Below are positions 13,554 through 13,705 of a stretch of 64,000 nt of DNA, piece by piece (within the stretch, counting starts at the first letter, position 1; every line of letters begins with the position of its first letter). Location of the stretch: contig JARFYF010000054.1 of NCBI GenBank assembly GCA_030265395.1, positions 23,046,169 through 23,110,168 on the forward strand. Reading direction: 5' to 3'. The notes under the pieces are model-generated. The model ran no database searches, was not told the DNA's origin, and worked only from the letters and a program-made list of their open reading frames with translations. The DNA is from Rhina ancylostomus (Eukaryota). The translations under genes were made by a program, and so were the position numbers.

Positions 13554-13639
13554 AGGACCGCTTTGATGATTTGCACCCAGGTCGTGGCCAGCATGCCGCC
13601 GAACAGGACGTACATCACCATCAGCACACCCACCAGCAC
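13554..13639 (-). other. actP: Bacterial cation/acetate symporter ActP (sodium:solute symporter family) fragment, probable contaminant chimera
   Basis: Minus strand reads [29 protein letters not shown], matching the ActP motif [22 protein letters not shown] as I recall it; GC-rich codons (GGC GGC, CTG, GCC, ACC); abuts an N gap. Confidence 0.85.
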
Positions 13640-13705
13640 ACGTTTGCGCCATTTCCGCACACCATCCCGCCAACGGCCATCATGCCAACACCTGCACCGC
13701 CCATG
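13613..13705 (+). CDS. AUTS2: AUTS2 exon 9, 3' part only (5' part lost in the N gap and chimeric segment); alternative donor extends it to 13726
   Basis: [31 protein letters not shown]|gtgcgt; the expected EQDILRQELNTRFL...PPPYLRTEF 5' part is not visible; start coordinate approximate. Confidence 0.9.

Follow-up and report, generated by a model that had tools for sequence, protein, structure and literature searches.

Contamination of genome assemblies is described in the available text of the Conterminator study as consisting mostly of short contigs, of flanks of longer contigs or of sequence beside Ns, and the minimum applied there is 100 nt at 90% identity (PMC7218494). The accessible part of the FCS-GX paper places chimeras often at contig ends, presents tests with chimeras of 1 kb and indicates that FCS-GX under-reports them (PMC10898089). 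The gene concerned here, AUTS2, comprises 19 exons in human and has a 7-residue alternative at the junction of exons 9 and 10, as given in the excerpt of PMC9008325, and exon 9 encodes the conserved PPPY and HX motifs according to the same excerpt and to that of PMC9454499. We analysed a stretch of 64,000 nucleotides of Rhina ancylostomus (assembly GCA_030265395.1, contig JARFYF010000054.1, positions 23,046,169 to 23,110,168 of the forward strand; hereafter the window), in which a piece of a bacterial actP gene stands within AUTS2 exon 9 at the edge of a scaffold gap. The feature is most likely an assembly artefact and not a real biological feature.

On the plus strand of the window, mapping of family proteins located AUTS2 exon 8 at 10095..10348 with a phase-1 donor at 10348/10349, and the 3' part of exon 9 follows at 13640..13726 with two alternative donors 21 nt apart. 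Exons 10-19 were found at 15440..60761 by tblastn of fetched family proteins combined with a listing of acceptors, which lie near 15440, 23117, 26680, 31932, 32834, 34740, 37099, 47775, 53138 and 59525; the last exon is open for 411 codons. The affected exon was numbered 9 of 19 because ten exons lie downstream, following the human exon count in the available part of PMC9008325. With exon 8, the 3' part of exon 9 including both donors and exons 10-19 all present, the host gene is otherwise intact. Further upstream, in the exon-7 region (5536-6354, plus strand), tandem repeats of the SQSLPQ and SQPLLP type lie in a 272-codon open frame, possibly a lineage-specific expansion of the proline-rich region.

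Exon 15 shares 82-85% identity with four proteins, two of them named AUTS2 by their source and two unnamed or hypothetical, and at most 57% with the other 114 of the 118 proteins that gave a match. By pairwise identity, used here in place of a tree, the window gene appears to be AUTS2, set apart from FBRSL1 and FBRS, and the genome carries a separate paralog, an exon of which was found on another contig (L004) and is unlike a sawfish protein at one residue in about 80. Among the best 120 of 315 matches there was no cartilaginous-fish AUTS2 orthologue, the best identity being 62%. Several shark and ray proteins with the source name 'autism susceptibility gene 2' (P0002-P0008) were by identity closer to FBRSL1 and to the paralog L004 than to the window gene, and database names for the AUTS2 family are, judged by these identities, unreliable in cartilaginous fish.

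Between exon 8 and the remaining part of exon 9 lies a scaffold gap of 106 N (13448..13553), which presumably conceals where intron 8 ends and exon 9 truly begins; projection of the paralog exon length puts this beginning at 13488, inside the gap. The base directly after the last N is the first of a foreign piece, an 86-nt fragment of an enterobacterial actP gene for a cation/acetate symporter of the SSS family (13554..13639, minus strand, profile positions 185-213 of 549), and the match ends abruptly at 13640, where host exon 9 goes on. For the span 13554..13640 given in the initial annotation, the start and the identity stood, while the exact extent is 13554-13639. Translated on the minus strand, from 13639 to the edge of the gap, the piece yields 28 ActP residues, which in profile searches matched NF006903 (E 8.8e-12), TIGR02711 (E 1.6e-11; 28 codons at profile positions 185-212 of 549) and Pfam SSF PF00474 (E 1.4e-6; 27.9 bits against a cut-off of 22.8). 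It scored 44 bits, far short of the curated cut-offs of 750 and 1099 for full-length ActP. The 86-nt stretch is ActP-derived, with a donor of the genus Enterobacter at 100% nucleotide identity, and the 86/86 match has an E value of 4.7e-39 for one genome and of 7.3e-35 for the entire host assembly. The profile matches and the 86/86 agreement with Enterobacter actP bear out the earlier identification of the post-gap stretch as bacterial ActP, and the GC-rich codons reported for its minus strand were found as well, 25 of 28 third positions being G or C, versus 195 of 411 in host exon 19, the last exon.

The piece has one visible junction with host sequence, at 13639/13640; at its opposite end the piece borders on N, and the T-rich intron to the left of the gap holds no donor sequence. 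Comparison of the last 200 nt left of the gap with 400 nt of the donor's continuation gave a longest common word of 9 nt. The gap at 13448-13553 has 5 CpG in its 80-nt flanks versus at most 3 at each of the other 16 gaps of the window. These 17 gaps, two of them with repeated flanks, are signs of a short-read style of assembly. At the 100-N gaps at 2629-2787 and 14839-14956, the flanks repeat each other over about 29 nt and 9 nt, which suggests unmerged contig overlaps and placeholder gaps of a short-read assembly. A tandem repeat of about 23 nt on both sides of a 470-N gap (window 28600-29360) is a collapsed minisatellite in an AUTS2 intron.

The sequence search of 13554-13639 for bacterial actP proposed by the initial annotation returned exact matches in two metagenome contigs (L005 and L006), in sequencing run X13 and in one Enterobacter genome (G041). 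L005 and L006, the two matches of an exact 40-nt scan of metagenome contigs, agree with the window at 86/86 positions of 13554-13639 and are unrelated to it from 13640 onward, and a 73,617-nt contig of the 5-Mb run X13 carries the same 86 bases with 0 differences, followed by other sequence. The frame in L005 is a full-length ActP of 559 residues from stop to stop. In L006 (1-3040), actP spans 267 stop-to-stop residues after an apparent one-base shift, versus 559 in L005, and is either an assembly error or a broken allele. The same 40-nt scan found 0 matches in a collection of genome contigs, and a separate genome-collection search, in a collection of different size, found the exact copy in G041.

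The two best GTDB relatives of the donor protein carry the title Enterobacter, and 78 of 81 genomes of this genus match the foreign piece, one of them (G041, locus L089) exactly at 86/86; the best of the 80 other GTDB actP loci reaches 81/86. A plasmid collection yielded 121 matching records, with up to 90.7% identity in genes annotated actP. The donor actP sits downstream of an acs-like gene. Judged by its letters, the 86-nt piece cannot be told apart from one living Enterobacter lineage, even at synonymous sites. The actP of a record titled Chryseobacterium (L024) shares 97% of its protein residues and 81/86 DNA positions with the Enterobacter donor, and this record is probably mislabelled or contaminated.

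At the junction, the last bases of the actP piece also read as the HX repeat of AUTS2, since the codons CAC and CAG turn into GTG and CTG on the opposite strand. The shared word (13619..13639, plus strand; a 21-nt core, up to 27 nt), the putative joining point, is translated as HQHTHQH in frame with AUTS2 and as VLVGVLM on the strand of actP. The initial annotation had counted about 27 nt that read both ways; such a word is real, while its core is probably shorter. The HX alternation holds from 13619 on, and the codon 13616-13618 is His, whereas M, Q or T stands there in 13 of the 14 family proteins that carry the motif (His in 1 of 14; the motif was absent from 106 of the 120 fetched proteins, leaving 14 usable). 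Because this His codon departs from the M, Q or T of the family, the shared core (13618/13619-13639) is probably 21-22 nt, and at most 27.

None of the 80 other actP loci matches the 15 nt of 13625-13639 exactly, and the five next-best Enterobacter loci, which were fetched, all differ at 13628, a base needed by the Thr codon of the repeat. The junction word is, among the loci compared, exact in the donor lineage only, which argues for a join at homology and not at a random point. Furthermore, assuming uniform base use, a 5-Mb and a 2.2-Gb genome are expected to share by chance about 5000 21-mers, about 5 26-mers and 0.005 31-mers. With so many 21-mers shared by chance, the junction word needs no special cause, and an assembler with k of at least 31 would not join through it.

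The unambiguously foreign part (13554..13613) occupies, on the plus strand, the place where exon 9 would be expected to encode the PPPY motif and the beginning of the HX repeat. In register with the paralog exon, 16 of 60 nt of this part are identical, versus 19 of 26 in 13614-13639 and 38 of 60 in 13640-13699. The gap, whose size like that of the other gaps is an estimate, and the foreign bases together take up about 166-171 nt, which is about the room that the host sequence needs; the bacterial bases would replace host sequence, and no net insertion would be needed. In the host assembly, the 5' half of AUTS2 exon 9 had two matches, the paralog at E 2.9e-4 and a weak one at E 4.2.

Translation of the plus strand agrees with the initial annotation that the foreign stretch is open in the AUTS2 frame. 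The in-frame acceptor that it had placed at 13580 is present as well: the sequence reads as a cryptic acceptor inside the foreign part (13576..13581, plus strand) with AG at 13579-13580, in phase 1, which matches the phase-1 donor of exon 8. Pyrimidines make up 9 of the 15 bases upstream of it, versus 9-14 at 11 host acceptors picked by eye. Using this candidate acceptor, gene prediction could arrive at a chimeric AUTS2 that lacks PPPY and the larger part of the HX repeat, and such a model might be mistaken for a lineage-specific loss or for a transfer.

In addition, we searched the host assembly for other bacterial DNA. An ActP family search of the whole assembly gave one short match, the fragment in the window, and the donor DNA surrounding actP, taken as 3 kb and as 20 kb, matched at the known 86 nt and nowhere else. 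A second 20-kb donor stretch had no match, and a third had a single 57-nt match at 86%, to a host exon of RNase Z type; the counts are floors, the donor DNA covered being 60 kb (3 x 20 kb) of 4.86 Mb. The search for bacterial SSU rRNA in the host assembly found host 18S only, which is a floor too, as this was a stricter first look. The lack of other donor matches fits a contamination too thin to assemble, or one that was screened out, and contamination of the library is accordingly presumed from the 86-nt piece.

The RNase Z-type exon (L100:1486-1660; G000:C52, near 24631970) has the ITHLHGDHLFGLPGLLC motif, an acceptor of its own and 86% identity over 57 nt to the RNase Z-type gene of the donor, and we take it to be of the ELAC1 type. 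Judged by its sequence this match is ordinary homology and not contamination, and it serves as a contrast, since real cross-kingdom homology is diverged. At L088 (725-3509), a second, partial copy of 18S (model positions 1118-1823) stands between host 18S rRNA and 5.8S; the rDNA unit is either duplicated or misassembled.

Sequencing runs were compared by the words of 13554-14400, of which 88 were sampled. Run X1 has a share of 0.92 and several 5-6-Mb runs have 0.07, with predicted shares of 0.920 for a host without everything left of 13619 and of 0.069 for the bacterium. The shares agree with X1 lacking the foreign words, and two SNPs elsewhere in the 847 nt would also give 0.92; X1 may be the same sample as the assembled one. 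Contigs of runs X1, X2 and X3 aligned to 13554-13699 gave 0 placements, possibly through a filter effect, and 0 contigs of a relative were placed on the foreign part, a weak absence. Contig alignment covered runs X1-X3 and X13, with a placement for X13, and the shares of runs X4-X12 and X14-X24 were not taken as evidence of habitat or strain.

Taken together, these data make it very probable that the shared word led an assembler or gap filler to continue the host contig with a contaminant read, a mechanism that we infer from its outcome. The host contig would have broken in the low-complexity, GC-rich HX repeat of exon 9, and one or a few contaminant reads overlapping the contig end would have been used to extend it by 60-65 bases. 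Thin contaminant depth would then have stopped the extension and left the N gap, and the animal itself would carry a normal exon 9. The piece has two of the marks of a contamination chimera, namely near-100% identity to a living organism of another kingdom and a position at a gap edge. An artefact fits this position, the zero divergence from a living bacterium and the donor-specific junction word, and it also fits the lack of other donor DNA in the 60 kb covered and the 5' half of the exon being missing rather than displaced. The initial annotation had likewise preferred an artefact to a real transfer, and this preference fits every test that gave a result.

The same piece could have arisen at the bench, by a PCR template switch at the shared word that produced a hybrid molecule, which the assembler then used faithfully. 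Template switching uses homology of this kind, and the exact identity, the junction at the shared word and the short extension would be explained too. Such a course, which would still make the feature an artefact, is nevertheless unlikely, as it needs a rare molecular event exactly at the contig end, whereas a bacterial read need only overlap that end, and words of the size of the junction are commonly shared by chance.

A real and very recent homology-guided transfer from Enterobacter into AUTS2 exon 9, germline or somatic and perhaps on one allele, with the gap standing for two differing alleles, is very improbable. The 21-27 nt of homology at the junction are a trace that homology-directed repair would also leave, and a heterozygous site could break an assembly; furthermore, no contradicting host contig was seen (with 0 contigs of X1-X3 placed, where a filter effect is possible) and the 60 kb of donor sequence tested revealed nothing further from the donor in the host assembly. 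Against it stand the 0 differences in 86 nt from a living bacterium, the single visible junction of a piece that ends at N with no donor similarity in the left flank, and the deletion of the conserved PPPY and HX coding sequence that it would impose on an otherwise intact gene. Moreover, X1 lacks about the same share of words as the bacterial runs hold. Two junctions in contiguous sequence, and divergence from the donor or presence in relatives, which would mark a genuine transfer, were not found. In the improbable event that the feature is real, the actP fragment would have taken the place of the sequence coding for PPPY and HX, in one allele or both, through a 21-27-nt match to Val and Leu codons of a transmembrane helix, a course to which we give very little credence, and a homology-guided transfer from a bacterium to a vertebrate would have been caught at zero divergence.

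A chance or convergent likeness of host sequence to antisense actP has a negligible probability and was rejected on the 86/86 match: the last 21-27 nt do resemble actP by chance, through His and Gln codons (CAC, CAG) that mirror Val and Leu codons (GTG, CTG), but 60 more bases agree fully with the donor and poorly with the paralog exon (16/60), at E 7.3e-35 for the whole assembly, and a true host-bacterial homologue, the RNase Z-type exon, reaches just 86% over 57 nt.

With the in-silico join as the preferred explanation, positions 13554-13618 should be masked in the assembly. The locus is a warning case, since its 86 foreign bases stay below the 100-nt floor that the available text of PMC7218494 gives for one common screen, and lie in frame in a disease-relevant exon. 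Exons with His/Gln repeats may attract contaminant joins in short-read assemblies, because their CAC and CAG codons are the reverse complement of the Val and Leu codons (GTG, CTG) of GC-rich bacterial membrane genes, a rule drawn from this one case. Among the listed matches of our literature searches on contamination, gap closing, shared k-mers and AUTS2 or actP transfer, there was no report of an AUTS2-actP chimera.

The locus shares with genuine transfers such as the Wolbachia integrants, as far as these are treated in the accessible part of PMC10898089, the presence of bacterial DNA in an animal chromosome scaffold; unlike them it has no second host junction, no divergence, no endosymbiont donor and no independent read support. 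Like ActP (TIGR02711, NF006903; PF00474), the fragment matches positions 185-212 with 28 codons, and its DNA is identical to actP of the genus Enterobacter, but it amounts to 5% of the gene, runs antisense to the host gene and comes without a start, a promoter or the remaining gene. In common with vertebrate AUTS2 exon 9, as described in the excerpts of PMC9454499 and PMC9008325, the 3' part and two donors are present, whereas the assembly lacks the 5' part, including PPPY and the larger part of the HX repeat, and has 60-65 foreign bases in its place. The locus is alike in kind to the contamination cases of Conterminator and of the TRIM and FIX classes of FCS-GX, where bacterial DNA of very high identity sits on the flank of a host contig beside Ns, according to the available portions of PMC7218494 and PMC10898089. 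In contrast to the cases in those portions, the piece described here measures just 86 nt, below the 100-nt minimum and far below the 1-kb test chimeras, and it lies inside a conserved coding exon of AUTS2, where the word that joins it to the host can be read from the sequence.
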